Shown: positions 3,481-63,326 of the stretch, piece after piece | Layout: the number at the start of each line of letters is the position of its first letter | Position numbering within the stretch: the stretch's first letter is position 1 | DNA from: a virus | Taxonomy: Duplodnaviria; Heunggongvirae; Uroviricota; Caudoviricetes | Reading direction: 5' to 3' (one strand) | DNA: 64,000 bases | Virus record (IMG/VR): IMGVR_UViG_3300001336_000003 | Span: 1 to 64,000 of that record | The notes under the pieces: generated by a model | What the model was told of the DNA's origin: nothing | What the model saw: the letters and a program-made list of their open reading frames with translations, nothing else | Databases searched by the model: none | Made by a program: the position numbers and the translations under genes

Positions 3481-3515
3481 TAAAGGCGGGGAAATTTCCC
3501 CGCCTTTTTTATTGT
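3481..3515. terminator. bidirectional rho-independent terminator (GGCGGGGAAATTTCCCCGCC + T-run) between convergent gp23 and endonuclease gene
   Basis: perfect 8-bp GC stem followed by TTTTTTATT on plus strand. Confidence 0.75.
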
Positions 3516-4888
3516 TCCCATATAAATTTTGCGTTGCCACAATCCCATATTCTATCCCAATTATCATCCATCATATTTTCATATTCTGTCTTTAATGGAT
3601 CGTAATTTTCCAATATATCACACAATTTGTGCTTTTGAAACTTCACACGAGAAAATAGCGTAGTGGTATTTTTCTTCCAATACCAGTAATTTGGTTCTGT
3701 CATGCCCACATAGTTAAAACCGCACTTCAAGTATACATTACCATCGCCAAATCTAAGATCAGAAAACGTCACTATACTTTCAGGACGCACTTCTTTTATG
3801 AAGTGATTTATTAATTTTGATACGCCACCTACAACTGTGTATTCACTATGTGAAGTTATCCTTGAACACTCATATTCGTATTTTTTGCTAAAACGGTTTT
3901 TTCCAAAAGAAGCTACCATAAGTAAATCACCACCATTAAAAAGACCATAGTGATGGCTCGCACCAACTGATGAATGTAGATGGTGTTCTTTATGAAACTG
4001 CATAGCTAATCTAGAATCTATTTTAGCTATTTGAGTTTTTCTTGCCCCTATTTTTTTGGTGCTACCTACCAACTTTGAAACTAGATACTTTACTTTTTCC
4101 ATGTCATCTGATTCGAAAACTGTTATTAGTCTATACCCCTTTTCTTTACATTTCAAGTATTTTTGTTTGTGGTAATTTTTTTTCTTTCCGCTTGATGTTT
4201 CTGAATGCCAATATAAACCACAATATTCAATAGCGATTTTCTTGTCTAAGTTAACTATATCCAATTCAAATGGGGCTATTATAGATCTGTCGCACCCTAT
4301 CCACGTGTCGTTTGGAAATTTACCCTTCAAATAATCATAAAGGTCTATTTCTGCTTTGCTACGCCAAGGTGGATTGATAGGTTCTATTTTTATATCATTT
4401 GACAAAAGTTGATTTCTTATATGTGTTTTGGACACGTTAAGCTTTTCGGCTAATGTGATAATAGATTTTGTTCTGTCATATTCTTTGTCAAGAAATTCTT
4501 TAGTGAAATGTATGTCTTGATGTTGCTTTTGCTTCCCCAATTTGGTAGACTCTGAAAGACTTCTAACTTCTATGTTACATTCTTCTATCCATTCGTATAT
4601 AGTAGCTTGGCTCACGCTGAAATATGCAGATAGCGATTCAATTGTAGATTCAGAATATAGCTGTTCGAGTTGTTTTTTATCAGGTTTTATTCTTTTTTTG
4701 TGTCTGGAATTTGCTTCCGTGGAAGCCTGTTTATGACTTTTTCTTTTTATGCTATGGTCTATAAGCCATTTTCTTACGGTTGGGTTAGAAGTATCGTATA
4801 GATTCGCCAAAGAAGAGATTGTCATCCCTTCTTTGGCATAGATACTTTCTAATTCGGATTTTGGTGGTATTGGTATTTTTTTACTCAT
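3509..4888 (-). CDS. free-standing homing-endonuclease-like protein: N-terminal repeated HTH modules + Vsr/DUF559-like PD-(D/E)XK nuclease core (IAIEYCGLYWHSE)
   Basis: 459 aa; three HTH-like segments (ISSLANLYDTSNPTVRKWL, IESLSAYFSVSQATIYEWI, ITLAEKLNVSKTHIRNQL); motif DIVNLDKKIAIEYCGLYWH similar to DFYLPDFNIAVEVNGTFWH of ORF 62430..63227; sits where T4 has segD after gene 23. Confidence 0.55.
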   Translation of the reverse strand: MSKKIPIPPKSELESIYAKEGMTISSLANLYDTSNPTVRKWLIDHSIKRKSHKQASTEANSRHKKRIKPDKKQLEQLYSESTIESLSAYFSVSQATIYEWIEECNIEVRSLSESTKLGKQKQHQDIHFTKEFLDKEYDRTKSIITLAEKLNVSKTHIRNQLLSNDIKIEPINPPWRSKAEIDLYDYLKGKFPNDTWIGCDRSIIAPFELDIVNLDKKIAIEYCGLYWHSETSSGKKKNYHKQKYLKCKEKGYRLITVFESDDMEKVKYLVSKLVGSTKKIGARKTQIAKIDSRLAMQFHKEHHLHSSVGASHHYGLFNGGDLLMVASFGKNRFSKKYEYECSRITSHSEYTVVGGVSKLINHFIKEVRPESIVTFSDLRFGDGNVYLKCGFNYVGMTEPNYWYWKKNTTTLFSRVKFQKHKLCDILENYDPLKTEYENMMDDNWDRIWDCGNAKFIWEQ

Positions 4889-4907
4889 ACCAAGCTAACA
4901 CTCCCCA

Positions 4908-5156: not shown

Positions 5157-5168
5157 TTATTCACTCCT

Positions 5169-5612: not shown

Positions 5613-5615
5613 TTT

Positions 5616-8256: not shown

Positions 8257-8795
8257 TAATATTTACTCCTTTGAACAAAATCTACTAAGTTATTTAGACC
8301 GAGTGTCTGTAACCAATGCAATTCTTGAGTATAGTCTTTATTTGTAGTCTGTTCAATCATCAACATATCATCAAAGTATTTTATGTTAAACTGTAGCGTA
8401 TTTGTCACTACTTCTATAGAAGGCGTATTCCAAAGAAAAACTGTTGATTCAGAATCAAAATTTTCAGCTTCTTGGGGTAATAATCTTTCTTCTATCTTGT
8501 CTTGGAAGTCATTTTCGAATCTTACAAAATCGTAGTATTCGTTAGGAAATGTGTTATTATTTGGGTTGCGTTCTATCCTTACACTGTTTGGTGATATGAC
8601 TTCAACGGTGTAAGGTGAAGGGACCGTAGATGCACTTACTTCAACTACGGTCCCTTCTGATACTGAAAAAGTTACAGTAAATCCGAAATCGACATTACCC
8701 CATATATTTGGAAACATGGTTTCTGGATCTTCAAAACCGATCCCAACTTCTGTAAAATTTGTCGTATTGGATATACTGTAACTTACTTGATTCAT
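8256..8795 (-). CDS. hypothetical protein (possibly virion-associated, adjacent to 5.4)
   Basis: ORF; context only. Confidence 0.35.
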   Translation of the reverse strand: MNQVSYSISNTTNFTEVGIGFEDPETMFPNIWGNVDFGFTVTFSVSEGTVVEVSASTVPSPYTVEVISPNSVRIERNPNNNTFPNEYYDFVRFENDFQDKIEERLLPQEAENFDSESTVFLWNTPSIEVVTNTLQFNIKYFDDMLMIEQTTNKDYTQELHWLQTLGLNNLVDFVQRSKY

Positions 8796-9514
8796 GCGTG
8801 GTCAACACCTTTACTTCTACAATTATCATTGTGCCATCTTGATATAGCATTTGGTTTGGCCTCTAAGCCACAATAAATGCATTTTTGCTTTGATATTTTA
8901 CTATGCGACTCTTTCATTTTAATTATAGTATCTTCGTTGTGTTTTTTGCCCCTAAAGTTTTTCCCCATGTCTAAATGTGCGTATTTACCATTTTTATGAT
9001 TATCTCTATATTTTTGTCGTGTTTCCTCTGATTGTTTATGACCAGTCTTAATTCTTCTTAATTTTTCTTTGGTTTCTTCTGTATGATTTTTACCGTAGAA
9101 TGGGTTATTTTCGCCCATCATCTTTTCACGAATTTTTTCTTTAGATTCTTCTGTGTGGTTGCCTTTTTTTGCCATAGGGTTGTTTTTCCCCTTAAATTTT
9201 TCTGACATGATTTTTTTACGTTCTTCTCTATTACTAGGATTGAGTTCACCGCTTGCAAAACCACAAGAATTGTTATTGAAATTCATACAATTTTCTTCTT
9301 CGATGTTCATGTTGATATATTTTTCTTCTAACTCTTTTAAGTGCTCTAAAGAATCTGCAAACTCTAATATCGTTTTAACTAATACGCTCTTGTCTTTTAT
9401 AGACCTAACCCATTTTCCAGACCCATAATATAAGTCATTCGGGTCATTGGTAGAATGGCGTCCTATATAGTATTTGCCATTTGGGTGCTCTGTCTTGTAA
9501 ATTATATGAAACAT
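8792..9514 (-). CDS. free-standing homing endonuclease-like: GIY-YIG-like N-domain + NUMOD3 repeats + C-terminal Cys finger
   Basis: HIIYKTEHPNGKYYIGRHSTNDP..YYGSGKW; repeated NUMOD3-like GKNHTEETKEKLR units; C-terminal CIYCG....WHNDNCRSKG shared with other copies; TATAAATA (minus, 9545..9552) upstream. Confidence 0.6.
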   Translation of the reverse strand: MFHIIYKTEHPNGKYYIGRHSTNDPNDLYYGSGKWVRSIKDKSVLVKTILEFADSLEHLKELEEKYINMNIEEENCMNFNNNSCGFASGELNPSNREERKKIMSEKFKGKNNPMAKKGNHTEESKEKIREKMMGENNPFYGKNHTEETKEKLRRIKTGHKQSEETRQKYRDNHKNGKYAHLDMGKNFRGKKHNEDTIIKMKESHSKISKQKCIYCGLEAKPNAISRWHNDNCRSKGVDHA

Positions 9515-9521
9515 TTTAAAC

Positions 9522-9573
9522 CTCTGGATTGGCTGTTATTATATTATTTATATAATCTCATGCCAATCCAGAG
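9522..9573. repeat. inverted repeat CTCTGGATTGG...CCAATCCAGAG (11-bp arms, 30-nt loop) between phoH stop and endonuclease gene start; late promoter inside the loop
   Basis: read directly from sequence. Confidence 0.6.
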
Positions 9574-10480: not shown

Positions 10481-10555
10481 TATAAATATAGTTGTTAGTC
10501 GCGGTGCTGGAACACCCACTAACTCTATGTTGATTAAAAAAGGAGCAACACAGCT
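10481..10555 (+). promoter_or_regulatory. homing-endonuclease cassette leader: late promoter TATAAATA + GTCGCGG box + hairpin + CCCACTAACTCTA + AAAGGAG RBS
   Basis: conserved at 7 loci (see findings). Confidence 0.65.
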
Positions 10556-11389
10556 ATGACTATTTATCTTTACATCAAAAAACACAAAATAACAGGTTTA
10601 AAATATCTGGGTATAACTTCACAAGAAGACCCTCACAAATATACTGGTTCGGGTAAAAGATGGTTAAGACATCTTAAAAAACATGGATACGAATATACGA
10701 CTGATATTCTACTCGCCACAGAAAACAAAAAAGACATTGAAAGAACTGGGTTATTTTTTTCTATGTTGTGGAACATAGTAAAAAGCAGTGATTGGGCAAA
10801 TTTGACGGAAGAACGCGGGAATGGTGGTGACATGGGGTTTTCGGGTCTGGCGTCCACCAGAGAAAAAATGAGTAATTCGCACAAGAAAAAAGTAAAAGAA
10901 GGGACACATCATCTTTTATGTGGCGACATACAAAAACAATCAAATAAAAAAAGAATTGATGAGGGGACGCATAATTTATTAGGTAATAATAACCCATCGC
11001 ATAAAAGAGTTGCAGATGGAACACATCACTTTTTGGATATAAGCTGGCAAAAGAGTGTAGCAAAAAGTAGAACTCAGAAAGCTATAGATAACGGAAACCA
11101 CTATTTTTCATCAGATTTAGGAAAAGAAAATTTGAAAGCTTATCAACAAAAAAGAGTTGTTGAAGGAAGTCATAATTTTTTAGGTGAAAAAAATCCATCA
11201 CATGATAGAATAAAGAATAAAACACATAATTTTCTAGGCTCAATTTCATGTAGAGATAAGACAGGCAATTGCGTTCAAATTTCAAAAGATATATACTATC
11301 GTCAAACAGGCCCAATGGAAGATTGGGAATATGTTGTAGTTCGTTCCAAAGAAGGCAAAAAAAGAAAAGAACTTCTTACCAAGTGTTGA
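10556..11389 (+). CDS. free-standing homing endonuclease-like (IY-YLG / YxGSG N-domain, NUMOD-like GTHHxLG repeats)
   Basis: MTIYLYIKKHKITGLKYLGITSQEDPHKYTGSGKRWLRHLKKHGYEY; paralog of 41596..42237 and fragment 21700..21903; repeats EGTHHLL/EGTHNLL/DGTHHFL/EGSHNFL/NKTHNFLG. Confidence 0.6.
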   Translation: MTIYLYIKKHKITGLKYLGITSQEDPHKYTGSGKRWLRHLKKHGYEYTTDILLATENKKDIERTGLFFSMLWNIVKSSDWANLTEERGNGGDMGFSGLASTREKMSNSHKKKVKEGTHHLLCGDIQKQSNKKRIDEGTHNLLGNNNPSHKRVADGTHHFLDISWQKSVAKSRTQKAIDNGNHYFSSDLGKENLKAYQQKRVVEGSHNFLGEKNPSHDRIKNKTHNFLGSISCRDKTGNCVQISKDIYYRQTGPMEDWEYVVVRSKEGKKRKELLTKC

Positions 11390-21623: not shown

Positions 21624-21699
21624 TATAAATAAAAGTGTCGTTCACGGATTTCGTGGTGGTTATCCCAACGACTCTAAAAACAGCAAAGGAGTTTCCAGC
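21624..21699 (+). promoter_or_regulatory. homing-endonuclease cassette leader (TATAAATA ... GTTCACGG hairpin ATCCCAACGACTCTA ... AAAGGAGTTTCCAGC)
   Basis: same architecture as 10481, 23746, 34340, 41569, 46140, 53248. Confidence 0.6.
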
Positions 21700-46139: not shown

Positions 46140-46212
46140 TATAAATATAAGTGCCAGTCGCGGTTGCCGCCAAGAAACCCACTGACTCTATGTTTAGTAA
46201 CCCAAAGAGAGG
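46140..46212 (+). promoter_or_regulatory. homing-endonuclease cassette leader
   Basis: TATAAATATAAGTGCCAGTCGCGGTTGCCGCCAAGAAACCCACTGACTCTATG...GAGGAACACAGCAC ATG. Confidence 0.65.
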
Positions 46213-47089
46213 AACACAGCACATGTATATTTATCTGATACGCAATATCATCAATGACAAGATTTATATTGGTCAAACTACAAAAACACCCGAAAAAAGA
46301 TTTAGGCAGCATGTATACACAAGTAAAAGACTAAAGACACAACTATATAACTCTATGAACAAATACGGCGAAGAAAATTTCATAGTAGAAGTTCTGGAAG
46401 TTGTTCAGGACAAGAGCCTTCTAGACCCAAGGGAAATATATTGGATAGCGGAACTGGAGCCAGAGTATAACATGACTATAGGTGGCCAAAGAAGTAGTAC
46501 CACAGAAAAATACACGGAAGAGCGTAAACGCGAAAGATCGGCAAAAAGTTCCGCTTCCATAAAAAAGATGTGGGATTCCATGAGTGAAGATGAACGCAAA
46601 GAACGCATGAAAAAAACCCACGCAAAAACAGATTACAAATCACATTCTGATAAACTTTCGGTTTCTAGAAGAAGATTTTTTACGAATGAAACTGAAGAGC
46701 AGAAAGCAATTAGAATAGAAAAAGCTAAAATAGGTGCCAAGAAAACAGAAAAAATCAAATGTCATTATTGTGATCAGGAAATTGGTGGTGGTAAATATAA
46801 TCTAGTAAAACACGAAGAAGTATGCTCAAAAAATCCATCATCAAAAAATTTTGGGAAAAGCACAAAAAAGAAACAACCTTATAGCTATACAATACTAGAT
46901 CCAAACAATACAAAGCATATAACATCATCATTTAAGGGATTTTGCAAAACACACAATCTTTCAAGATATTTGCTTATGAAAAATATTGGAAGTGTAGTTG
47001 AAAGCGTTGACGCTAAAACTAATAACGCCAACGCAACAACAATAAATACCTTTGGGTGGTGTTTACTTAGGATTGATGATCTGACTTAG
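46151..47089 (+). CDS. GIY-YIG homing endonuclease with NUMOD3-like repeats and C-terminal Cys finger
   Basis: YIYLIRNIINDKIYIGQT..RFRQH..LYNSMNKYG..NFIVEVLE..REIYWIAELEPEYN is the canonical GIY-YIG domain; TEERKRERSAKSS/ERKERMKKTHAKT units; CHYCDQEIGGGKYNLVKHEEVC. Confidence 0.85.
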   Translation: MPVAVAAKKPTDSMFSNPKRGTQHMYIYLIRNIINDKIYIGQTTKTPEKRFRQHVYTSKRLKTQLYNSMNKYGEENFIVEVLEVVQDKSLLDPREIYWIAELEPEYNMTIGGQRSSTTEKYTEERKRERSAKSSASIKKMWDSMSEDERKERMKKTHAKTDYKSHSDKLSVSRRRFFTNETEEQKAIRIEKAKIGAKKTEKIKCHYCDQEIGGGKYNLVKHEEVCSKNPSSKNFGKSTKKKQPYSYTILDPNNTKHITSSFKGFCKTHNLSRYLLMKNIGSVVESVDAKTNNANATTINTFGWCLLRIDDLT

Positions 47090-53247: not shown

Positions 53248-53327
53248 TATAAATAATAATATAGGTCGCGGAGTACCAGTCCCACCTATTCTACGTTTAT
53301 AGCTTTAGAAAGAAAGGAACGCAGCTT
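53248..53327 (+). promoter_or_regulatory. homing-endonuclease cassette leader
   Basis: TATAAATAATAATATAGGTCGCGGAGTACCAGTCCCACCTATTCTACG...AAAGGAACGCAGCTT ATG. Confidence 0.6.
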
Positions 53328-54371
53328 ATGGCTATTTATTCACCATACACATATCTTATCGGATGGTCAAGACTTAATACGTGGTATTATGGCGTAAGAT
53401 ATGCAAGAAAAAGTCAATGTCTTTATGAAAGTGGTTGTCATCCAGACGAACTTTGGGTCACTTATTTCACATCTTCGAAACATGTTAAAGATTTCAGGGA
53501 AAAACATGGCGAGCCAGATGTTATACAAGTCAGGAAAACTTTTCCATCAGACTCCTCAAAATCACAAGAAGACGAAAAAGAACTTGCACGAAGCGCTCTT
53601 CTTTGGGAAGAAAAAATTCTTATTCGTGTAGGTGCTATACATAAGGATATGTGGATCAACAAGAGCATCGCAGGTCATTTCAGGACCACAGAGAGTAACC
53701 CCAATCCACTAAAGGGTAAAACATACGAAGAAGTATATGGAGTTGAAAAATCAGAAGAGTGGAAACACGCGACGAGTATCGCCAGCCAAAAATTTTGGAA
53801 TTCAGATGCAGGTAAAGAAAGAAAAAAATACCTATCTGAAAATATAAGTGAAAACTTTACCACTCTTGGCATAGAACCAGTGTGTAAAATTAAAGATACT
53901 TTTATTCATGTATGTGAGATATGTGGCGAGTTTAATAAAAGAAGAAAAACAGCAGGTGAGTTGAAAAAGAAAACTTGCGGTAGCAAATCGTGTGCAATAA
54001 AATGGTTCTATAAATACAATCCAGAAGCAGCAAAATCTAAAATGCCTCCAACAAAGTTCACTACTATAGGCCACGAACCAGTAAATAAAATCACCGATAC
54101 ATTTCTATGGAAGTGCGTTGTGTGCGGGGTTTCATGCGTAAAGCGTGATACAATAAAAAATAGAAACAAGATAACATGTGGCAAATCTTGTGCAGCAACT
54201 TACAACAACCGAAAAAGAGTAGAAAACGGATATACAAAACAAGGTTCAACGTATAAACACAAAGGTAAAAAGTTTTTAATAACCAATGGTTATGAAACAG
54301 CATTGTTAGAAAAAGGCGACCAGATTCCACAAGGATGGGAATCTGGTCGCCATTGGAAACCAAAAGGTTAG
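53328..54371 (+). CDS. free-standing homing endonuclease-like protein (IY-YLIG N-domain, two Zn-ribbon repeats)
   Basis: MAIYSPYTYLIGWSRLNTWYYGVRYA paralog of 23821 N-domain; repeats IEPVCKIKDTFIHVCEICG / HEPVNKITDTFLWKCVVCG each followed by CGxxCA. Confidence 0.6.
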   Translation: MAIYSPYTYLIGWSRLNTWYYGVRYARKSQCLYESGCHPDELWVTYFTSSKHVKDFREKHGEPDVIQVRKTFPSDSSKSQEDEKELARSALLWEEKILIRVGAIHKDMWINKSIAGHFRTTESNPNPLKGKTYEEVYGVEKSEEWKHATSIASQKFWNSDAGKERKKYLSENISENFTTLGIEPVCKIKDTFIHVCEICGEFNKRRKTAGELKKKTCGSKSCAIKWFYKYNPEAAKSKMPPTKFTTIGHEPVNKITDTFLWKCVVCGVSCVKRDTIKNRNKITCGKSCAATYNNRKRVENGYTKQGSTYKHKGKKFLITNGYETALLEKGDQIPQGWESGRHWKPKG

Positions 54372-56611
54372 GCCAACTCGCAGGCCCCGCCTGCACAGGC
54401 TTGGGCACCCATTAGATCTATATCTGTAAATCGTTTCGCTTCAAGTTCCAAAGCAAAATCAACATTATCTAGGGTATTTTGTATCTTTACCCAACGATGA
54501 AGAAGATGTACGGCCTTCAAGCAATATTCAGCTTTTTTCGTGTCACCATCAAAATAGTTTTCCGCGTAGTTTCTGAAACGACGAATCCATTCAGCACGTA
54601 AATCTGCTTTTTCTTTATCACCAAAATCGCTTTCCATTTGCGCAATCATTGTTGCATCCCATAGGTTGTTAAATCCTCTGGAAGCATCAACAATAAGTCC
54701 AGAAGCAAACATTGCGCCACGGCCATAAGTTTTGATGATTTCTTCTTCTGTCAATATCTCAGTGTTTGGTGCTTGGTTGAAGTCTTTATCACCAGTGGCA
54801 GATAGCAAACTTACACCAGCAAAATATTGACGATTTTCGAATAGATAATCTTCAACTTCATCCCATTGTTCAGGAAGAACTGAAATAGTATTTGACACAT
54901 TATGGCGAACTGTAGGGTCAACACACAATTCAACGTCTGTGCCATACTCTACCCAATTTTGTTGTATCAACTTGACTTTTTCCAATAGCTTGACGCCATA
55001 TAGGTCTTTTCTGAAAATTGACGTCTTAGGTGCAATAACAGGGAAAGAAATGACATAATCAGTCTTGTTTTGTGACCACACAGATTCTTCAACCATGTAT
55101 GGATTTCTTTCTTTGATAAGTTGTGCAACTTCCGAGTCTTTGTTCATTTGGACATTACGAATATACAAGGGCGAATGTTCACCATGAACACCAAAAGCAG
55201 TTTTAAGCAACACAGAAGCATTACCAGCAGGCTTCACACAAGTTGTTCTAGCTGCTGGATTGATACCGATTAGCTTTGCGACATGCTTATTGACTTTCTT
55301 GATAAGTTCCGCACCTTCTCTTAGAATTTGTTCATCCAAAAGAATGTGTGGGTTGTTCATCCATCCAGTAATGGAAACTCCCAAAAGTGCTTCACGGTCA
55401 AAGATTTTCTTTGTGGTTTCACCAACAAATTTGAAGTCGGTATAACCAGCTTGAAGTGTTCCAAGAATAGCTGCACTTCTACAAGCGTTTAGAAAATCCT
55501 GTCTTGTATTGGCTTCCGCGCCATTCATTTCCACAAGGTTACATCCCTGCCATCCAGAATGCTTTTCTTTATTTTCGTCAATGTGGACAGGATACTTACC
55601 AATTTCGACACATGGATTATATGTGTGTTCTGTGGATTCTGCGAATACGAAACCAGGCTCGCCAAATTGCTTAACAGAATTCATCAAATTTGCAAATGTT
55701 TCGCGGCTAGCAGTTTTACGAACAATCAAAGCAGAGTTGTTTGAACGACCTCTTTGTGGGTTTTTCAAATACCAATCACCCGTCTTAGCAGTCATCATTT
55801 CTTCATCTTCTGGCGAAAACAAGAAGATTGTAGCAGAACGACGAACACCGCCAGCAAGAACTGCATCTGCTAGGTGCATGGAAATATCATAGACGTGGAT
55901 TGATCTTAGTGTGTCGCCACCTTCAAGAATGATGCCTTGAATAAGGTGTTCGATTTTATCCAAAGCACGACGAAGTGGTTCTGGACCAGGTGCTTTGAAA
56001 CCACCAGAGATCAAGGCACCTCTTGGACGAATTTTGGATGTGTCAAAATAAACGCGACGGCCTTCATATTCAGGATGTTTGCCACCACCAATAAAATATG
56101 ACGACATTAGAACGTCAGCAGCAGTTGCCCATCCTTCAATGCTATCTTCGATAACATGGATTTTTGCTTGCTTGGTTCTGTTTTGGATTTTAGATAGTTT
56201 AGCAACATGGTGCTTTTGAACAGATACACCTGCACCAGCGCCACAAAGAAGAATGTAGAAAAATTCGCCAAAAAATTCATCGCGATCAGCATAAGATGAT
56301 GTGCAATTATACAATCTCATCTGATGCTTGATTAGTTGTTCCCCACCAAATTGAAGAGCCCTTTGCGCACCAAGAACGTGTTTTTGCTTATAGGCTTGTT
56401 CTACATCTTTAATCAATTCTTCCAATTCATCTGTCATCTTGTCTTTGTAAAAGTCACGGTGCATATCCATGACTCTGGAAACCGCTTCATTCCAAGTTTC
56501 GTATCTTTCTTTCTTATCATCCCATCTCGAATAACCTTCGAAAAATTTAGCATCCGACAACATATCTCTTGTGTCGCGATCCCCATTAAAGTGAATAACG
56601 TTATCTAGCAT
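54368..56611 (-). CDS. nrd: ribonucleotide reductase, monomeric class II (adenosylcobalamin-type)-like
   Basis: 747 aa; catalytic NPCVEIG (NxCxE), C-terminal redox tail ACAGGACELA; no adjacent nrdB. Confidence 0.75.
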   Translation of the reverse strand: MLDNVIHFNGDRDTRDMLSDAKFFEGYSRWDDKKERYETWNEAVSRVMDMHRDFYKDKMTDELEELIKDVEQAYKQKHVLGAQRALQFGGEQLIKHQMRLYNCTSSYADRDEFFGEFFYILLCGAGAGVSVQKHHVAKLSKIQNRTKQAKIHVIEDSIEGWATAADVLMSSYFIGGGKHPEYEGRRVYFDTSKIRPRGALISGGFKAPGPEPLRRALDKIEHLIQGIILEGGDTLRSIHVYDISMHLADAVLAGGVRRSATIFLFSPEDEEMMTAKTGDWYLKNPQRGRSNNSALIVRKTASRETFANLMNSVKQFGEPGFVFAESTEHTYNPCVEIGKYPVHIDENKEKHSGWQGCNLVEMNGAEANTRQDFLNACRSAAILGTLQAGYTDFKFVGETTKKIFDREALLGVSITGWMNNPHILLDEQILREGAELIKKVNKHVAKLIGINPAARTTCVKPAGNASVLLKTAFGVHGEHSPLYIRNVQMNKDSEVAQLIKERNPYMVEESVWSQNKTDYVISFPVIAPKTSIFRKDLYGVKLLEKVKLIQQNWVEYGTDVELCVDPTVRHNVSNTISVLPEQWDEVEDYLFENRQYFAGVSLLSATGDKDFNQAPNTEILTEEEIIKTYGRGAMFASGLIVDASRGFNNLWDATMIAQMESDFGDKEKADLRAEWIRRFRNYAENYFDGDTKKAEYCLKAVHLLHRWVKIQNTLDNVDFALELEAKRFTDIDLMGAQACAGGACELA

Positions 56612-56857
56612 TTCTACCTCTTCTTATTATTAAATACAAAGTCTAACCCCTAAATACACATGTAGGGGCACCTATTTTATCGTTCTTGGATTTTCTGTTG
56701 CCTTTTATGGCAGTAATGATATTTATAATATGACTTACCCCGAAAACACCATTATTTCACACATTTGAACAAAAATCAAACAGCCATTTGCATTTTCACG
56801 GTTTCGTGACACATATAGTTGTTTAGTCTCATTTTTGACACATCATCTAGTTTGAAC

Positions 56858-58525
56858 CTAAACTGCCATAGGTGCTTTAATTGTTGGGTGGCACTGATAA
56901 TTTTTAAGTGTAAACATATTTACCGTATTAAAATTGAATCCGTATGTCAAACCTTTAGACAAAACAAAGTCTTCTGATATTTCTAATGTTGGTAGAGGAT
57001 ATTCTTTTCTCGTAAGTTGTTCCCGAACCTGTTCAATATGATTATTATATATGTGTGCATCACCTATGGAATATACGAGTTCACCAACTTGCATATTAAC
57101 TTCTCTAGCCAAAATATGAATAAGAAGTGCATATGAAGCAATGTTGAAAGGCGCACCCAAAAATGCGTCATTTGATCTCATTGTTAACATCCCGCTTAAT
57201 TTGTTCTCTCTGACAATAAGTTGAAAGAAACAGTGGCATGGTGGTAGTGCTTGCATATCTATAACCGTAGGATTCCATGCTGACAATATGATTCTTCTTG
57301 ATTCGGGTTCGTTTTTTATTTGGTTTATTATATTTACGATTTGGTCGGCCACCACCTTTTTACGAAATACATGTCCATTAGAAGCTTGAATATATTTTAG
57401 ACTATACCCATTATAACTTTCACCTGTGTCTAACAAATAAGAAATCCTCGCCAGTGTCAAATCATCTATGCTATTGCATATGTCTGTTTTATACAGATAG
57501 TCTTTGTATGTATCATAGTGGAAAACTCTTATTTTTCTATGATGGTCTACTTGTTTATTGGCTATTGCCAAGTTCATCTTTTTTGGTAGAAATATGCAAG
57601 TGTGTTTAGAATAGATGTCAGAGCAATAGTAATCTTTATCCAATTCGTAGTCATTATTCATCTTAACCCATTCATAAAATCCTGGGATTTTATCTATGTC
57701 TAGTAAAAAATTCTTAAAATCCATCCAACTATCAGAAACACGAACACCCCTAGCCCCATAATTTCTATAACTTAGATGTTTTTTATTATAGCATCTATCT
57801 ATCATATGAATCCATAGTTTATATGCTTTCTTATAGTAAGATGGTTTATCACCTCTGAATGAATTGTTTGCCACCCCCTTAATCAAAGGGTTGAGGCAAA
57901 TCTTCTTAGGTATATTACTTCCTAAAATTTTAGTCAATTCACCCGTATCTAGTGCTTGCGCTATGTAAGTTTTTCGATATTTGTCGTTGCTGCACAGACC
58001 TAATATTTTAATGGGTCTACCAGATTTAGATGTAAATCTATAGCCCGTATATTTGTGTCCATCGCCGTAGTCTGCAAATTCAATAACTTCTTTAGCCGTA
58101 TCTATCGTTTCTTTGCGTTCTGGAACTTCTGTAATTTGTTCGCTGGCAGAATACCAATTTCTCCACATACTGCCATACACAGGACCAAGAAGCCCTATAG
58201 ATTCGATAGAATCATACCCTAAATTTTTTCCTTGGTGTATTAGATTATCTGTCCATATCGTTTGTTTACCTACCAATTCCTCACGGGGTTTGCCATATGT
58301 CAATTCAGCAAGTCGTCTTTCATCTGTGCCGCCTTCAAGAAACCATAACAATTCACCCACAACAGATTTCCATGCGAGTTTCTTTGTGGTGACGGCTGGA
58401 AACCCATCGTTCAAATCAAATCGCATCTGATAACCAAAAACAGAACGTGTTCCAACACCAGTTCTATCTTCAACATCAACACCATTTTCCAAGACGTGTC
58501 TAATCAAATCATGATATTGTTGCAT
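56858..58525 (-). CDS. td: thymidylate synthase ThyA carrying an in-frame about 265-aa insertion that contains an HNH-endonuclease motif
   Basis: N-terminus DRTGVGTRSVFGYQMRFDL..FPAVTTKK..LLWFL..LGPVYGSMWRNW and C-terminus SRRIILSAWNP..ALPPCH.FFQ..RSNDAFLGAPFNIASYALL..GDAHIY match ThyA; middle has KLWIHMIDRCYNKKHLSYRNYGARGVRVSDSWMDFKNF (phage HNH family). Confidence 0.85.
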   Translation of the reverse strand: MQQYHDLIRHVLENGVDVEDRTGVGTRSVFGYQMRFDLNDGFPAVTTKKLAWKSVVGELLWFLEGGTDERRLAELTYGKPREELVGKQTIWTDNLIHQGKNLGYDSIESIGLLGPVYGSMWRNWYSASEQITEVPERKETIDTAKEVIEFADYGDGHKYTGYRFTSKSGRPIKILGLCSNDKYRKTYIAQALDTGELTKILGSNIPKKICLNPLIKGVANNSFRGDKPSYYKKAYKLWIHMIDRCYNKKHLSYRNYGARGVRVSDSWMDFKNFLLDIDKIPGFYEWVKMNNDYELDKDYYCSDIYSKHTCIFLPKKMNLAIANKQVDHHRKIRVFHYDTYKDYLYKTDICNSIDDLTLARISYLLDTGESYNGYSLKYIQASNGHVFRKKVVADQIVNIINQIKNEPESRRIILSAWNPTVIDMQALPPCHCFFQLIVRENKLSGMLTMRSNDAFLGAPFNIASYALLIHILAREVNMQVGELVYSIGDAHIYNNHIEQVREQLTRKEYPLPTLEISEDFVLSKGLTYGFNFNTVNMFTLKNYQCHPTIKAPMAV

Positions 58526-58526
58526 T

Positions 58527-58877
58527 TTAACCCTTCTTCATTTTTTCGCGTATTTTCGTTGCACTAATTTCTTGTATTTCAGGTGGTAAATCTATATATT
58601 CCACGTCATATCCAACATCACGCCCATAGTATATCTTCGTGATATTAGGAACAGAAATAACATCATAATAACCTTCGAACTCATCTTTAAGGCTATTATC
58701 AATATTTTTCTTCACTTGTTCAAAATCGAATGGGTTTTTTTCGCTGATAGGCATATCGCGAACCATTATTAGAACTTGTCCAACTCTTTTCCAAGATTCG
58801 ACAAAAATTGCTCGGTGTCCATCGTGCCATGGTTGGAATCTTCCAAGCATTTGTGCAGTAGGTCTTTTGTAATCCAT
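58527..58877 (-). CDS. cytidylyltransferase-fold NMN/NaMN adenylyltransferase-like protein
   Basis: GRFQPWHDGH (HxGH) at N-terminus, 116 aa. Confidence 0.5.
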   Translation of the reverse strand: MDYKRPTAQMLGRFQPWHDGHRAIFVESWKRVGQVLIMVRDMPISEKNPFDFEQVKKNIDNSLKDEFEGYYDVISVPNITKIYYGRDVGYDVEYIDLPPEIQEISATKIREKMKKG

Positions 58878-59233
58878 TTCGTAATCCTCATTTCGTATTG
58901 TGTAGGTGGTTGAAATATTTTATTGGTATCCTCATATCTACCTTGGGGGATTGTATCCATCCAAATGGTATAATCTGCTTCAAAAACATATCGTGTCATA
59001 TCAGTAGGGCAAACAAAATCGCATATAACTACGCGACCTTCACCCTTTTCAAAATTAGCCAAATTGCGCATTCGTCTTGCTTGTCGCAATCTTGCATTTT
59101 CAGAAAATTCCCAATCATTAGCCATTTTCCGAACATCGTCTGCATCGAACCATGCACACTTTAAAATATCTTGAAGATCTTTTGCCAGCCATGTTTTACC
59201 AGAGCCAGGTAATCCCATGATTAGAATTTTCAT
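58769..59233 (-). CDS. P-loop kinase (candidate nucleoside/ribosylnicotinamide kinase)
   Basis: ILIMGLPGSGKTW Walker A; 3' end overlaps next gene by about 100 nt in another frame. Confidence 0.45.
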   Translation of the reverse strand: MKILIMGLPGSGKTWLAKDLQDILKCAWFDADDVRKMANDWEFSENARLRQARRMRNLANFEKGEGRVVICDFVCPTDMTRYVFEADYTIWMDTIPQGRYEDTNKIFQPPTQYEMRITKWITKDLLHKCLEDSNHGTMDTEQFLSNLGKELDKF

Positions 59234-59707
59234 TTATCGTCTCCTGATTTGAAATGTAAGTTCTTCATCTTCTTTCCAATATTCTATGACAGGAAATTTT
59301 GTGATGATATCTGATTCGACATATCTATCACACTTGAACTTCTTGTTAATAGTGGTCAGATATAGCTTGTCACAATATGGAATCGCTTGTTGATAAATGT
59401 CCGCACCACCAATAACCCAAATATGAAGTCCATCATAAAGTTCCTTGACATATTGTATAATTTCACCCATATCACCAGACATAGTAAAATCAGCATCTAT
59501 TACTTTGCTAGTCACGACAACATTTGTTCTTTTTGGTAGTGGTTTGCTACCAATGGATTCCCATGTAGTTCTACCCATCAAAACAACATGACCCATTGTA
59601 TTATCACGAAACCAATCCATATCGCGCTTGTTTTTTGGCCAAGGTAAGTTACCTTCATTACCAATACCAAAATCTAAATCACATGCTAAAATAGCATTTA
59701 CAGACAT
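59234..59707 (-). CDS. frd: dihydrofolate reductase
   Basis: ILACDLDFGIGNEGNLPW ... VLMGRTTWESIG ... IWVIGGADIY. Confidence 0.85.
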   Translation of the reverse strand: MSVNAILACDLDFGIGNEGNLPWPKNKRDMDWFRDNTMGHVVLMGRTTWESIGSKPLPKRTNVVVTSKVIDADFTMSGDMGEIIQYVKELYDGLHIWVIGGADIYQQAIPYCDKLYLTTINKKFKCDRYVESDIITKFPVIEYWKEDEELTFQIRRR

Positions 59708-59724
59708 TCAATTCTCCCTTAAAA

Positions 59725-60408
59725 TTAGGAAAAGAAGCTTGTCAGGCCATTGTTGCCTTCAAGTCTTTTCTTCGCTATGTCAAAATATTTATCATCCAAT
59801 TCTATACCGATAAAAGGCAATCCTAGTCTTCGTGCAGCAACACCTGTGCTACCAGAACCCATAAATGGATCAAGAACAATACCATTGGAACCATCACCAA
59901 TGCCATGTATCAAATCTTGCATCAATGAAACGGGTTTACAAGTTGGGTGCCCATGATCTTCAGATGGACTTGGCCTTCTATGGGAAAATACGGATTTCGG
60001 TCTTTTATTGGCGAATGATCTTTTGCCTTTTGTGGCATACCAAATAATATCGTGCATGGGCGCAAAAGAACCAGATAGATCACCCATGCCGTGGTGCATT
60101 CTATTCCACACACCTTGTGACTTCAAATCGAACCCGTATTGTTCTATTGATTGACGCCAAACATGACTTGTGTTCCAATCGCAAAAAGAAATAAGCCCCC
60201 CTCCGTCTTTCAAGACGCGGAAAGCTTCACCTAACCATTCAGTGAAAAATACATCATCATTCGCAATTGCTTTATGTCTAGGACCATCTTTTCCGTGATT
60301 TGAACGAAAATTCATACCATAAGGCGGATCTGTGACCACCATATCAACAGACCCGCTTTCAATTTCAGACATTTTTTCTAAACAGTTACCATTTAACAGT
60401 TTTATCAT
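59725..60408 (-). CDS. beta-class N6A/N4C DNA methyltransferase (motif IV DPPY before motif I FMGSGST)
   Basis: SVDMVVTDPPYGM; FRVLKDGG; LDPFMGSGSTGVAA. Confidence 0.8.
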   Translation of the reverse strand: MIKLLNGNCLEKMSEIESGSVDMVVTDPPYGMNFRSNHGKDGPRHKAIANDDVFFTEWLGEAFRVLKDGGGLISFCDWNTSHVWRQSIEQYGFDLKSQGVWNRMHHGMGDLSGSFAPMHDIIWYATKGKRSFANKRPKSVFSHRRPSPSEDHGHPTCKPVSLMQDLIHGIGDGSNGIVLDPFMGSGSTGVAARRLGLPFIGIELDDKYFDIAKKRLEGNNGLTSFFS

Positions 60409-60418
60409 TTACATCCTT

Positions 60419-60994
60419 TCACGCATATGCTGCAATCTCCATAACGTGTTCTTTCACATCATCAATGGAAGTATAAAGTTTCTGGTTGACCTTCCGTTCA
60501 ATTTCTTTACGGACAAAGGTAACATTATTTATTTTGATGTTGCTCAAGACTTCGCGGGCTGCACCAAGTGCTTCTTTCAGTTTGATTTTAGCAGGCTTTT
60601 TGTTGGCTTTCTTCTTTTCCTTGAAGTCATTCACAAGCTTCTTGACTTCATCTAAAGCGATGAAAACAGGAAGTTTATAGATTTCTTGGGGGAAGTCAAC
60701 CTCAATCGAACCATTGTGATACAGTTCCATCAAGATTTCTTCGGGATCGTTTTCATAAAGACCAACGACATAGGCGGCTTCACGCGCATCTGCATAAACG
60801 CCAAGGTGAAGGGAAAGACGTTCTTTTGCAGTCAACCACTTAGAAAGAACAGGGTCATTTACGGGATTTTGCCGCATTGCAATGAAGGGACGCTCTAGAT
60901 CAAGGGTCCACGAAGGCGACAAGGTTACACCGTAATAACCAGAACGACCGAGAGAAGAAGTTGCGATTTCAACACCGTTAATGTTGTAGTTCAT
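60419..60994 (-). CDS. AP2-domain DNA-binding protein
   Basis: RSGYYGVTLSPSWTLDLERPFIAMRQNP...LHLGVYADAREAAYVVGLY fits AP2/ERF fold signature. Confidence 0.5.
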   Translation of the reverse strand: MNYNINGVEIATSSLGRSGYYGVTLSPSWTLDLERPFIAMRQNPVNDPVLSKWLTAKERLSLHLGVYADAREAAYVVGLYENDPEEILMELYHNGSIEVDFPQEIYKLPVFIALDEVKKLVNDFKEKKKANKKPAKIKLKEALGAAREVLSNIKINNVTFVRKEIERKVNQKLYTSIDDVKEHVMEIAAYA

Positions 60995-61046
60995 GTCGTT
61001 TCCTTTTCAAGCTACACTACATATATACACTATCAGATGATGCCTG

Positions 61047-63326
61047 TCAAGCATCATCCGAAAAGAAATTATCTAGCGTAGTCTTTTTTTGGACAGCTTC
61101 TATCCTTGCTTTCGCAATTTCAATATATTCTGGATCAAGTTCAATACCAATGAAGTCGAACCCTTCAAGTTTTGCGGCTTTGCCAGTCGAACCAGAACCC
61201 ATGAAAGGATCAAGAACAGTTCCATTAGGTGGAGTTACAAGTTTCACAAGATAGCGCATTAGTTCTGTTGGCTTCACCGTAGGATGATTATTTTTGGAAG
61301 GTATGAAAGGTCTATTTGCTCTTTCTGGAACCGCAGCACCTTCATGTTTCCATTCCTTGTCAGGAAGATTTTCCAAACCCTCATTGCGATCTTTCTTGGA
61401 AGTCTTGGCACAGTAAAAGAAACGGGCAGCGGAACCTTCGTCATTGTAATTGCTAGGTGATTGTGGTTTATCGCCATTAAACATGGAAGTATCTTTGTTG
61501 TCATACTCGTTTCCAGCATAAGAATATACACCTTTGTTATTACCAGAACCAGTTTTTGGAAACAACTCTGTCACTTCTTCACTACCATCATGAATGAGGT
61601 TGGCGGGGAAACGACCAACGCTGTCGTCCACCTTAGCCCGTTCGGTTATGCCTCCGTTGTGAAGCGCAGTACTCCCTGCGCAACCCCCGCTAGTTTTCTT
61701 CGTGCCGTTCAAATCAACTCTACTTTCATCAATATTGATGCCACCTGTGCCATACTTTAACACATTAGCAGCAACAGTATTTTCACTTAGTGGCTTTCTT
61801 GCAACAGTGATCGGTTCTAATGCGGGCTTTAGAGCAGTTCCCCAACCATTCCATTTTTTGGCTTCATCTGTAGCGGGTGCAGTTATTTGAATAACATTTT
61901 TTGCACTTTTGTCTTCTGAATTTCCAGTATATGCGTTTGGCCTAAATCCGTGTTCTGCATTAGTTTTAGAAATGTGAGCCATTCCGCCAGAGTTTGTTTT
62001 TGTCTCTGATATAATTTCGCGTTCTGCACCAGACATTTTATCAATAGCTTTACTAATATCCAATGACTTCGGAAATCCGCTTCCATAACCCCATCCCACC
62101 ATTCCATCACGACCAAATGTAGCATCAAAAAGCTTCATCTGTTCTGGAGTCAAAGATTCAAAAAGTTGTTGGGCTGTGGTATTAGTATCATATAGATATG
62201 TGACCATATCACGAATTTCAAAACCAGCATCTTCAATGTTGACTGCCATCCTATGTTGCGTCCTAGTGCCAGCAAATGCCAACAAATGACCGCCGGGCTT
62301 CAAGACTCGCAAACATTCTTGCCAAATTTCAGTAGTAGGGACGTCATAATCCCATTTTTTACCCATAAAACCACTGGAATTTGTATAAATATCAGATACA
62401 GATTTAAGTAAATTTTTAGGAACATAAAGATGCAAAAAATACTCAGAACTTGTCCCGTTTGCAGTATCCAATATGAAGCCGACCCTAACAGGCTGAAGCA
62501 CGGTAGACAAACTACTTGCAGCAAGGTTTGTTCTTACAATCTTAGGTCTGATAAAATTAGAAAAAGTGTTACTCTTGAGTGTGGTAATTGCGGCACTGGA
62601 ATAATCAGAAGCCCTAGTCAAATCAAAAGTAAGCACGGGCACATCTTCTGTTCCATTTTCTGTAAGAGTGAAGCTATGAGCAAAGGAATCATCCCCCATG
62701 TTATCACTACCCCATACAATATCAGGAACCCCATCCCTGAAGATAGGAAAAGGGAAATCCATTCCAGAATTTGGGAAACAAGAAGAAAAAATGGAACTGA
62801 TAGGCACACTAAAGAAACCATACGAAAATTGTCCGAAATTACCACTAAAAACATCGTCAGCGGTAAAATCAATAGAATTTCCAAAATCGAATATGAAGTT
62901 TCCGATAAACTTACTTCCATTGGCGTCAAATTTATCCCTCAATATGGTATCAGGGATATGAAAACTGGAAGATACTGTGCTTCTGTCGATTTCTATCTCC
63001 CTGACTTCAACATTGCCGTCGAAGTAAATGGGACTTTCTGGCATAGAGACCCTAGATTTTATGATAGGAATAGTCTCACACCTGCTCAAATCAGAACACA
63101 TACTAGATTTGAAAGAAAAGTCGCTATATTGGATTCTCTTAATATCACTCTCGTAGAAATTTGGGAGCATGATATTAAAACTTTTCCAGACAGCTTTATT
63201 GACCCTCTTATAAAGGTTATCGCCTAAACCATAAGGGGGATCTGTAACAATGCTATCCACACTGTTATCTGGTAATTCTTTCATCTTATCAAGGCAATCG
63301 CCAAGCATCAATTTAACTTCAGTCAT
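61047..63326 (-). CDS. large beta-class DNA methyltransferase whose ORF runs in frame through an antisense-inserted endonuclease cassette
   Basis: SVDSIVTDPPYGL (aa 24-34), then about 290 aa Ser/Phe-rich low-complexity region, then IWQECLRVLKPGGHLLAF, long TRD, LDPFMGSGSTGKAA; paralog of 59725..60408. Confidence 0.8.
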   Translation of the reverse strand: MTEVKLMLGDCLDKMKELPDNSVDSIVTDPPYGLGDNLYKRVNKAVWKSFNIMLPNFYESDIKRIQYSDFSFKSSMCSDLSRCETIPIIKSRVSMPESPIYFDGNVEVREIEIDRSTVSSSFHIPDTILRDKFDANGSKFIGNFIFDFGNSIDFTADDVFSGNFGQFSYGFFSVPISSIFSSCFPNSGMDFPFPIFRDGVPDIVWGSDNMGDDSFAHSFTLTENGTEDVPVLTFDLTRASDYSSAAITTLKSNTFSNFIRPKIVRTNLAASSLSTVLQPVRVGFILDTANGTSSEYFLHLYVPKNLLKSVSDIYTNSSGFMGKKWDYDVPTTEIWQECLRVLKPGGHLLAFAGTRTQHRMAVNIEDAGFEIRDMVTYLYDTNTTAQQLFESLTPEQMKLFDATFGRDGMVGWGYGSGFPKSLDISKAIDKMSGAEREIISETKTNSGGMAHISKTNAEHGFRPNAYTGNSEDKSAKNVIQITAPATDEAKKWNGWGTALKPALEPITVARKPLSENTVAANVLKYGTGGINIDESRVDLNGTKKTSGGCAGSTALHNGGITERAKVDDSVGRFPANLIHDGSEEVTELFPKTGSGNNKGVYSYAGNEYDNKDTSMFNGDKPQSPSNYNDEGSAARFFYCAKTSKKDRNEGLENLPDKEWKHEGAAVPERANRPFIPSKNNHPTVKPTELMRYLVKLVTPPNGTVLDPFMGSGSTGKAAKLEGFDFIGIELDPEYIEIAKARIEAVQKKTTLDNFFSDDA
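62384..62391 (+). promoter_or_regulatory. late promoter TATAAATA of the embedded endonuclease, located inside the methyltransferase ORF
   Basis: TTTGTATAAATATCAG...taggaacataaagATG. Confidence 0.55.
62430..63227 (+). CDS. Zn-ribbon + Vsr/DUF559-like PD-(D/E)XK endonuclease (homing-endonuclease-like), embedded antisense within the methyltransferase gene
   Basis: CPVC..CSKVC and CGNCG..CSIFC zinc ribbons; nuclease core RYCASVDFYLPDFNIAVEVNGTFWHRD ... LVEIWEHD. Confidence 0.75.
   Translation: MQKILRTCPVCSIQYEADPNRLKHGRQTTCSKVCSYNLRSDKIRKSVTLECGNCGTGIIRSPSQIKSKHGHIFCSIFCKSEAMSKGIIPHVITTPYNIRNPIPEDRKREIHSRIWETRRKNGTDRHTKETIRKLSEITTKNIVSGKINRISKIEYEVSDKLTSIGVKFIPQYGIRDMKTGRYCASVDFYLPDFNIAVEVNGTFWHRDPRFYDRNSLTPAQIRTHTRFERKVAILDSLNITLVEIWEHDIKTFPDSFIDPLIKVIA

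Follow-up and report, generated by a model that had tools for sequence, protein, structure and literature searches.

We analysed a 64,000-nucleotide (nt) stretch of a phage genome (IMG/VR record IMGVR_UViG_3300001336_000003, positions 1 to 64,000; hereafter the window), which is the early/middle gene region of an uncultivated, distant T4-like phage. The window contains 10 intact homing-endonuclease-like open reading frames (ORFs) and one fragment, which occupy approximately 9.1 kb, or 14% of the sequence. We consider it probable that this region was colonised many times, independently, by endonuclease genes from an environmental pool. An earlier sequence-only reading of the same DNA had pointed to this crowd of genes, and all of the 11 loci that it named were present where it had placed them; the observation was partly confirmed, being largely real but in need of correction. 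Taken by itself, the crowd of modular endonuclease genes is an extension of the T4 picture with little that is new. A leader shared by most of the plus-strand endonuclease genes and two in-frame insertions without a detectable splicing element merit experimental follow-up.

Nuclease heads and their modules

Ten of the loci are listed below; the eleventh is an insertion in the thymidylate synthase gene thyA.

3509–4888, minus strand: EDxHD/Vsr-like PD-(D/E)XK homing endonuclease, 459 amino acids (aa), with N-terminal helix-turn-helix repeats (helix-turn-helix Pfam hits)
8792–9514, minus strand: Seg-type GIY-YIG endonuclease with a YYGSG motif, NUMOD3 and a C-terminal C2HC finger (8819–8881)
10556–11389, plus strand: 277-aa Seg-type GIY-YIG endonuclease that lacks the finger and has six G(T/S/N)H(H/N/Y)(F/L) repeats
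21624–21903, plus strand: leader and truncated Seg-type head, a 67-aa fragment from 21700
23821–24822, plus strand: SegE-like GIY-YIG head (PYFYIIQ..YYAG), six 32-aa repeats (24145–24717) and a C2HC finger (24745–24807)
34418–35263, plus strand: Mob-like HNH-type endonuclease (EKHHICP), 281 aa, with one or two copies of the 32-aa repeat, a weak NUMOD3 and a C2HC finger (35171–35233)
41641–42237, plus strand: Seg-type GIY-YIG endonuclease (locus 41596), 198 aa, with NUMOD3 and a C2HC finger (42133–42195)
46223–47089, plus strand: canonical GIY-YIG endonuclease (locus 46151) with an internal C2HC-like finger (46760–46825)
53328–54371, plus strand: SegE-like GIY-YIG head (PYTYLIGW..YYG) with two C-x2-C..C-x3-C ribbons
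62430–63227, plus strand: Vsr-like PD-(D/E)XK endonuclease, 265 aa, with two N-terminal zinc ribbons, antisense to a methyltransferase gene

Start codons were corrected to ATG 41641 (not 41596) and ATG 46223 (not 46151). The five head types of the sequence-only reading collapsed to three superfamilies, namely GIY-YIG (n = 7, including the YxGSG and IY-YxG variants), HNH-like (n = 2) and Vsr-like EDxHD (n = 2), but the heads are truly of different families rather than all of one.

Within the GIY-YIG group, locus 46151 matched the canonical models (Pfam GIY-YIG, E = 1.7e-13; TIGR01453, 77 bits with a cut-off of 56), and the TIGR01453 matches of 8792 and 41596 were below the cut-off. The latter two YxGSG proteins fall in phrog_314 (E = 7.5e-28 and 1.3e-23, respectively) together with 46151, and the YxGSG motif is also found in T4 SegA (GYMGSG) and SegF (KYPGSG). 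The head of 10556 (phrog_12324, E = 2.8e-11) matched that of 41596 (E = 1e-36), as did the 21700 fragment (E = 1e-7), and the best relative of 41596 was L079, from another IMG/VR stretch (E = 5e-47). Locus 23821 matched phrog_12434 (E = 3.9e-31), and 53328 was assigned to the PYTYLIGW-type head class by its motif and its best match, L145; hhalign joined the two head classes into one family (99.4%). The cut-off of Pfam PF19835 (SegE_GIY-YIG) was passed by relatives of 53328, not by 53328 itself. Among 42 relatives, Y7, Y9, G12, Y20, Y21, G22, R24, E94 and N111 were conserved, and the hallmarks of GIY-YIG enzymes (two Tyr strands, conserved Arg, Glu and Asn, and an I-TevI-type fold) were present. 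Shallow local profiles did not link the Seg or YVYAY heads to canonical GIY-YIG (28–38% probability); the PHROG, Pfam and fold searches did.

The motif EKHHICP..LTPRQHFIAH of 34418 was similar to that of T4 MobB and MobC. This protein matched phrog_655 (E = 8.8e-37) and phrog_12434 (E = 2.7e-19), both annotated as endonuclease, and gave no HNH match in Pfam or NCBIfam and no PDB match. By tblastn, 688 phage records matched it, most of them T4-like. Its N-terminus, MDIY, is like that of the GIY-YIG genes. In their T4-like host type and head families (Y-x-GSG of SegA/SegF and HHI-P of MobB/MobC), as well as in their intergenic position between conserved genes and their use of late promoters, the window genes resemble the free-standing seg and mob endonucleases of T4.

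Locus 3509 matched phrog_3339 (E = 1.9e-84) and phrog_559 (E = 2.4e-75), and its residues 214–272 aligned with the Vsr-like core of I-Bth0305I (PDB 3R3P, E = 3.8e-5), which it resembles in this catalytic core. Locus 62430 has the same PHROG families (phrog_559, E = 2.4e-15) and shares the E-x-N-G-x-x-W-H core, of which the form E-V-N-G-T-F-W-H was conserved in 7 orthologues. Since its Pfam Vsr score (19.5 bits) was below the cut-off of 27, as was its PvuRts1I score, and no PDB match was found, 62430 is a weaker Vsr-like member than 3509. I-Bth0305I was deposited as a "mobile intron protein", whereas 3509 and 62430 lie in no detectable intron. Both 53328 and 62430 have two C-x2-C-x12-15-C-x3-C ribbons of similar spacing, and a profile of the four repeats matched nothing else in the window. 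A zinc ribbon common to 53328 (residues 190–300) and 62430 (residues 1–90) was considered and dropped, as BLASTP gave E = 0.035.

The shared C-terminal tail proposed earlier was found as a finger, C-x2-C-x12-H-x3-C, that ends 8792, 23821, 34418 and 41596 (three kinds of head) 4–13 residues from the C-terminus, with a looser variant inside 46151; it was absent from 3509, 10556, 53328 and 62430. Among the ORFs behind the shared leader in IMG/VR, 18 further proteins with at least seven kinds of head end in this finger. In 22 sequences the four ligands and the spacing C-x2-C-x12(-15)-H-x3-C were invariant, and the finger stood 2–13 residues from the protein end in nearly all of the 22 proteins (two exceptions). 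The best PDB matches of the finger profile were C2H2 finger arrays, every single-finger match being weak. The repeat of 23821, which had been read as 22 aa in 7–8 copies, is 32 aa long and present in six exact tandem copies (residues 109–299); as had been noted, it recurs in 34418 (one clear and one weak copy), and outside this genome it was found with four kinds of head. No Pfam or NCBIfam model covered the finger or the 32-aa repeat. NUMOD3 (Pfam PF07460, gathering score 20.4 bits) was confirmed in 8792 (58.3 bits, E = 7.3e-16) and 41596 (46 bits, E = 4.8e-12), but in 34418 it scored 16.9 bits, below the cut-off; no Pfam match to NUMOD3 was obtained in 10556. The latter instead has six G(T/S/N)H(H/N/Y)(F/L) motifs, 20–31 residues apart, at residues ~105–235, which differ from NUMOD3 and the 32-aa repeat and were unrecognised by Pfam.

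The finger, the 32-aa repeat and NUMOD3 were joined to GIY-YIG and HNH-type heads. These results supported the modularity seen by the sequence-only reading, with a predicted nuclease head linked to interchangeable, putatively DNA-binding modules. In a 2003 paper on NUMODs, Sitbon and Pietrokovski reportedly described small DNA-binding modules linked to nuclease heads and shared by GIY-YIG and HNH enzymes. The architecture is like that of I-TevI, I-HmuI and NUMOD proteins in the presence of NUMOD3 and in the end of the thyA insert, which matches the C-terminal domain of I-HmuI. Unlike the finger of I-TevI, which lies in the linker (PMC2988022), that of the window proteins is C-terminal. The C2HC tail had no match in bases 1–50,000 of T4.

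Probable repeated colonisation from an environmental pool

Nearly all genes at 3509–64000 are on the minus strand, and three late structural genes (a 255-aa ORF, the scaffold protein and the major capsid protein) are on the plus strand at 229–3442. The major capsid protein was 64% identical to those of Sinorhizobium phiM12, Methylophilales Melnitz and Stenotrophomonas DLP_6, which are distant T4-like phages. When the ribonucleotide reductase/thyA region was compared with 50,697 phage records by megablast, no cultured relative appeared at the nucleotide level; relatives were found at the protein level only. No tRNAs were found in the window. The exact 53328 protein was present on JGI (Joint Genome Institute) contig Ga0643553_000030 (139,688 bp) and on four further contigs with identical neighbours; the five contigs came from one sample each (four JGI metagenomes and one Logan run). 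Since this locus and its neighbours recur in five samples, the endonuclease arrangement is not an accident of assembly.

T4 has 15 such genes, equal to 11% of its coding potential, and a review calls it an oddity among its relatives (PMC2988022). The endonuclease count per kb in the window was about twice the genome-wide value of T4. The matching regions of the closest relatives (seven relatives, 133 kb in all) yielded a single endonuclease-like ORF, compared with 11 loci in the window. The density that had been called extreme is thus far above that of sister genomes; the word overstates it, because bases 1–50,000 of T4 already hold six such genes, a density similar to that of the window. A search of the six-frame translation of the window with the 11 proteins and 107 endonuclease ORFs from other contigs revealed no further endonuclease-like ORFs.

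Gene order was collinear with that of relatives, and four matching sites in the relatives L001, L002, L199 and L200 were without the gene: those of 10556, 34418, 53328 and the thyA insert. Between homologous neighbours, 10556 was absent in L200/L201 and 34418 in L199. Two loci also bear possible scars:

56776–56856, minus strand: displaced, diverged copy of the last 26 thyA codons, directly 3' of the thyA stop codon (phmmer, E = 0.0024)

Translated, this copy (FKLDDVSKMRLNNYMCHETVKMQMAV) resembles the ThyA C-terminus of sister phage L001; in sequence it is nearer to the C-terminus of sister phages, and it looks like the original gene end left behind by gene conversion. The 21700 fragment, with its leader intact, stands between a full copy (21309–21608, minus strand) and a truncated 35-codon copy (21986–22093, minus strand) of a small Cys-rich gene; it looks like a decaying endonuclease gene with a duplication of its target gene. 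Judged from their sequences, both would fit gene conversion. In addition, genes that span ~54 kb in the window (9582–63978) are packed within 21 kb in related contigs L200/L201. Hence this phage gained far more than endonuclease genes, or L200/L201 lost it.

Another explanation is that the genes persist mainly through benefits to the phage and are not purely selfish homing elements: they would be used against co-infecting relatives or, above all in the case of the ThyA insert, would have been domesticated for DNA binding or regulation. An intron-encoded endonuclease is reported to mediate interference competition between co-infecting phages (PMC11620839), and the family of the thyA insert is old, diverse and without a conserved catalytic His, which fits domestication. 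Late, tightly controlled expression would suit this explanation and a selfish one alike. However, the patchy presence in close relatives, the decayed 21700 fragment and the conversion scars are the usual signs of a selfish cycle of gain and loss, and we regard benefit to the phage as an unlikely reason for these genes.

The sequence-only reading had suggested ongoing exchange of domains among paralogues within this genome, so that shared tails, repeats and leaders would be products of recent internal swaps. Different heads do bear the same finger, repeat and leader, and short near-identical stretches could seed recombination: pairwise blastn of the 11 loci gave 19/19 nt between 10556 and 23821 (ribosome-binding site and start codon), 89% over 53 nt of leader between 21700 and 41596, and 93% over 30 nt of finger between 23821 and 41596. 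However, these were the only three matches, and no pair of loci had a longer tract of nucleotide identity. The shared modules were only 24–55% identical in amino-acid sequence. Locus 41596 was nearer to L079 (157 bits) than to its window paralogue 10556 (123 bits), and the best outside and inside matches of 10556 were about equal (118 and 123 bits). Furthermore, these modules recur in unrelated IMG/VR contigs, both in the same head–module combinations and on other head types. Because the matches are short, a closer relative of 41596 lies outside and the modules are widespread elsewhere, we concluded that the shuffling takes place in a large environmental pool, which would have been the source of repeated colonisation of this phage; internal exchange is quite improbable and was not supported.

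Under repeated colonisation, the pool would supply the heads (Seg-type or SegE-type GIY-YIG, Mob-like HNH and Vsr-like EDxHD) and the modules (NUMOD3 helices, 32-aa repeat, helix-turn-helix units, zinc ribbons and a terminal C2HC finger with classical zinc-finger spacing). The plus-strand genes would be transcribed only late, each from its own promoter, and leader hairpins, the second of them overlapping the Shine-Dalgarno sequence, would control either translation or the stability of the mRNA. In a mixed infection, the enzyme would cut the gene-less allele of a related phage, and recombinational repair would then copy the endonuclease gene with its flanks. Two arrivals, neither with a detectable intron or intein, would have settled inside genes: an HNH-related domain in a ThyA loop and an antisense Vsr-like gene in a methyltransferase loop.

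Late-promoter motifs and a shared two-hairpin leader

The T4 late-promoter motif TATAAATA was found before all eight plus-strand endonuclease genes, ending 38–75 nt upstream of the ATG, and all eight oppose the strand of the surrounding genes. The plus strand of the window has 12 copies of the motif, eight at these genes and three before late structural genes. A further copy lies at 54009–54016 (plus strand) within the coding sequence of 53328 and may be an embedded late promoter or a chance match. In T4, only segD has been described as opposing its neighbours, and seven of the free-standing genes lack a promoter specific to them (Edgell, Gibb and Belfort 2010, PMC2988022). Unlike this, 8 of the 11 window genes are antisense to the backbone, each with its own late-promoter motif.

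In seven of the eight genes, the exception being 62430, the motif belongs to a common leader cassette of ~75 nt. A covariance model matched the following copies:

10481–10555, plus strand: leader of 10556 (50.5 bits)
21624–21699, plus strand: leader of the 21700 fragment (53 bits)
23746–23820, plus strand: leader of 23821
34340–34417, plus strand: leader of 34418
41569–41640, plus strand: leader of 41596 (start codon 41641)
46140–46222, plus strand: leader of 46151 (start codon 46223)
53248–53327, plus strand: leader of 53328

The order of elements is the TATAAATA promoter, hairpin 1, TCTA, hairpin 2, CAGC and ATG. Hairpin 1 has a 6-bp stem with a conserved C(G/A)C bulge and a GG..CC inner stem; hairpin 2 is short, and its 3' arm begins within the Shine-Dalgarno sequence GGAG. 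The structural genes lack the cassette, as does the minus-strand gene 3509, a relative of which (L159) has it.

A pattern search without a complementarity requirement identified the leader in at least 118 IMG/VR stretches (L075–L192). The ORFs behind these leaders were almost all endonucleases with many head types, covering at least two nuclease superfamilies plus one Vsr-like example, and 71% of the leader-bearing genes had opposite-strand genes on both flanks. The covariance model found no copy in the closest relatives (878 kb around ribonucleotide reductase genes). Most proteins of leader genes, including 34418 and many HNH proteins elsewhere, start with M-x-I-Y; because this start is shared, the conserved unit seems to extend into the first codons.

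Covariation of hairpin 1 was examined in 92 distinct sequences against shuffled pairing (500 shuffles) and against slid partner columns. In hairpin 1, 99.5% of cells were paired, compared with 76.3% after shuffling, and double-sided changes numbered 177 compared with 40. The covariation score was 0.593 against 0.136 for shuffled pairing (none of the 500 shuffles reached 0.593) and at most 0.075 with slid partner columns. In hairpin 2, 4.08 of 5 positions were paired, compared with 2.37 after shuffling.

Of 16 free-standing GIY-YIG and Vsr-like endonuclease genes studied by Dassa et al. 2009, 15 were preceded by hairpins; ten of these hairpins include TATAAATA, and two conserved motifs pair in the stem (PMC2677866). 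Since hairpins, promoter and pairing motifs were reported there, the leader is not wholly new, and by its sequence features the leader of Dassa et al. is probably the same as or related to ours, from the same kind of uncultivated T4-like phage. The "fractured genes" of that study, from marine metagenomes, hold endonucleases between split-intein halves in the same direction as the host gene. The leader described here differs: it comprises two hairpins that covary across ~100 loci, stands before genes with many head types and is mostly antisense and intergenic.

Gene 8792, which is transcribed in the same direction as the backbone genes, is preceded by a different device:

9518–9573, minus strand: stable hairpin with TATAAATA (9545–9552) in its loop and its 3' arm over the Shine-Dalgarno sequence of 8792

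The hairpin had a folding energy of -27.6 kcal/mol (z = -6.5), and none of 200 shuffles was as stable. It is the only case in the window of a T4-type hairpin that contains a late promoter and masks the ribosome-binding site, an arrangement like that in the control of T4 I-TevI and Aeh1 mobE. The seven leader cassettes differ from it in that the promoter lies upstream of both hairpins and only hairpin 2 touches GGAG.

Endonuclease-related insertions within thyA and a methyltransferase gene

Two genes of the window contain in-frame insertions:

56858–58525, minus strand: thyA, 555 aa including the insertion, with Thymidylat_synt matched in two stretches
57347–58153, minus strand: in-frame non-intein insertion in a ThyA surface loop, ~residues 125–393
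61047–63326, minus strand: N6/N4 DNA methyltransferase ORF, 759 aa, which reads through the insertion (PF01555, E = 2.3e-32)
62370–63227, no strand assigned: 858-nt insertion directly after the methyltransferase DPPYG motif (junctions determined against empty allele L214)

The thyA insert sits between GPVYG.QWR and DQI, and the gene is uninterrupted in L001, L002 and L200. The insert, which had been assigned to HNH earlier, matched PHROGs annotated HNH (phrog_2081, E = 2.4e-36) but had no Pfam domain at E up to 1. Its conserved core is W..M..RC..YG.G..W..F..LDKDYY..N. Only the last 60 aa matched I-HmuI, in the DNA-binding domain (1U3E, E = 3.4e-5). The insert has no late promoter of its own. 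An intein was rejected: there is no conserved starting Cys or Ser, the insert ends with ..V(A/I) followed by (D/N)Q, and no Pfam Hint/intein match was found.

As a query, the insert alone gave only 8 weak matches. An exhaustive HMMER search with the whole protein found many ThyA fusions of 520–560 residues, aligned end to end at 33–49% identity; among the best 150 ThyA cluster representatives, 79 were at least 500 aa long and 92 had the core motif W..M..(R/K)C. At least five cultured phages, mostly jumbo phages of 348–358 kb (such as Klebsiella KP13-7), carry the fusion in one uninterrupted piece; the carriers include UE-S1, KP13-7, ph0011 and Bacillus phage 015DV002. Because these long proteins are annotated just "thymidylate synthase" or "hypothetical protein", in-gene insertions are probably under-counted. 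The insert is a widespread in-frame non-intein domain, related by sequence to homing endonucleases, and a putative nuclease.

In the methyltransferase gene, the plus strand of the insertion carries a late promoter (62384–62391) and endonuclease 62430, and the minus strand is open for 286 codons in the methyltransferase frame. An empty allele (P0133; 470 aa, 90% identical) reads DPPYGINFMGRKWD at this site; where the empty allele has 6 nt, the window has 858 nt. Read in the methyltransferase frame, the TAA that ends the endonuclease gene becomes TTA and encodes Leu34, immediately after DPPYG; at the other end the insertion extends 20 codons past the endonuclease start, with the promoter inside it. 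The codons TTA, CTA and TCA, which are stops on the opposite strand, are not used in 62430, compared with ~8.6 expected, which in one allele by itself could be chance.

Of the 120 best methyltransferase homologues, 89 were uninterrupted, 18–21 had an insert of 277–288 residues at the same site and none was broken. All seven alleles for which DNA was available, with GC contents of 38–60% and one of them on a Propionivibrio metagenome-assembled genome (MAG) contig, kept the host frame open (with a chance of 1.3e-5 to 9e-2 per allele) and carried an antisense endonuclease ORF that was intact and codon-aligned. In three alleles compared by tblastn, the orthologues of 62430 at this site were 45–61% identical, and six other alleles have intact antisense ORFs. 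The comparisons covered loci L211–L217, of which L214 is empty. Substitutions followed the endonuclease frame in the insert and the methyltransferase frame in the flanks. From these open frames, we infer that the host methyltransferase would be translated straight through the insertion.

An intein was rejected here as well: the insert starts with LGDN or LS.. and ends with ..SSG or ..RGG before FMGK, without a position-1 Cys or Ser, a terminal His-Asn, a +1 nucleophile or a Pfam Hint/intein match. There is no room for splicing blocks, because the endonuclease stop abuts DPPYG and only 20 codons lie past its start. A group I intron was rejected for both genes, as no Rfam match reached the gathering score in the window and none was obtained at E up to 1 in 56500–63600. 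The host frame also stays open through both insertions, a feature that an intron would not require.

The closest published case to the methyltransferase insertion is that of inteins with antisense VSR-like or LAGLIDADG endonucleases, the hosts of which include PF01555 methylases (Gosselin, Arsenault and Gogarten, bioRxiv 10.1101/2025.01.02.630785). In both, the endonuclease is antisense in an in-frame insertion in a phage gene, and the in-frame translation has no recognisable predicted structure. In those inteins, splicing domains excise the insert; unlike them, the methyltransferase insertion has no intein motifs. Full-text literature searches found no description of an antisense non-intein endonuclease inside a methyltransferase or of an in-frame thyA insertion, and no close copy of the methyltransferase insertion was found in cultured phages.

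Long antisense frames also occur elsewhere in the window. At 35752–36543 (plus strand), a 263-codon ORF with a junk-like translation lies antisense to an ordinary-looking 262-aa gene (35833–36621, minus strand), and the capsid gene has an antisense run of 239 codons; the two serve as a control for the methyltransferase argument. An artefact, in the form of a chimeric metagenomic contig or a chance antisense ORF in the methyltransferase, is extremely improbable: the source is a metagenome assembly and such chance ORFs longer than 230 codons are present in two other window genes, but the 53328 locus recurs with its neighbours in five contigs from different samples, gene order is collinear with relatives, and at least 7 diverged alleles found in other samples, an NCBI MAG included, share the arrangement of the methyltransferase gene.

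We tentatively propose, with confidence just short of even, a third within-gene lifestyle beside introns and inteins. In this proposal, the antisense cassette (late promoter, ribosome-binding site, Vsr-like ORF and stop codon) would sit exactly in frame in a permissive loop by DPPY, its reverse strand kept stop-free because the endonuclease avoids TTA, CTA and TCA, and the host methyltransferase would remain functional with ~286 unstructured residues translated as part of it. On the sense strand, its equivalent would be the ThyA loop insertion. The strictly Watson-Crick leader would be dedicated to the control or mobility of this gene pool and would be read either as DNA or on both strands.

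Several points weigh against these readings. Enzyme activity, transcription and homing are all inferred from sequence. The 286-residue read-through segment has no predicted fold (AlphaFold pLDDT, the predicted local distance difference test, of 27–54 across the insert) and adjoins the catalytic DPPY motif; on this structural model, the interrupted methyltransferase may be inactive. Chance antisense runs longer than 230 codons occur in 2 of 52 genes of this genome; since such frames arise in single genes, the read-through case rests on several alleles, and the insert-carrying alleles came from a protein database that lists called ORFs only. In the family alignment, the thyA insert has no conserved catalytic His, and it may no longer be a nuclease. 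The leader hairpins were no stabler than shuffled sequence (z = -0.4 to +0.9), covariation being their sole support. Moreover, hairpin 1 had no G-U pairs in 708 scored positions (697 Watson-Crick and 11 mismatched), and therefore a DNA-level or two-strand constraint fits at least as well as an mRNA element.

The leader offers a testable handle on how selfish nucleases are silenced until late infection, and a sequence tag for finding such endonuclease genes in metagenomes. Overlaps like that in the methyltransferase gene are missed by gene callers. A homing gene would need no splicing machinery to invade a conserved coding sequence, if the host protein is indeed produced and active. The sole cost would be the avoidance of three codons, which would change which genes count as invadable and would provide a clean natural case of selection on both strands of one sequence.

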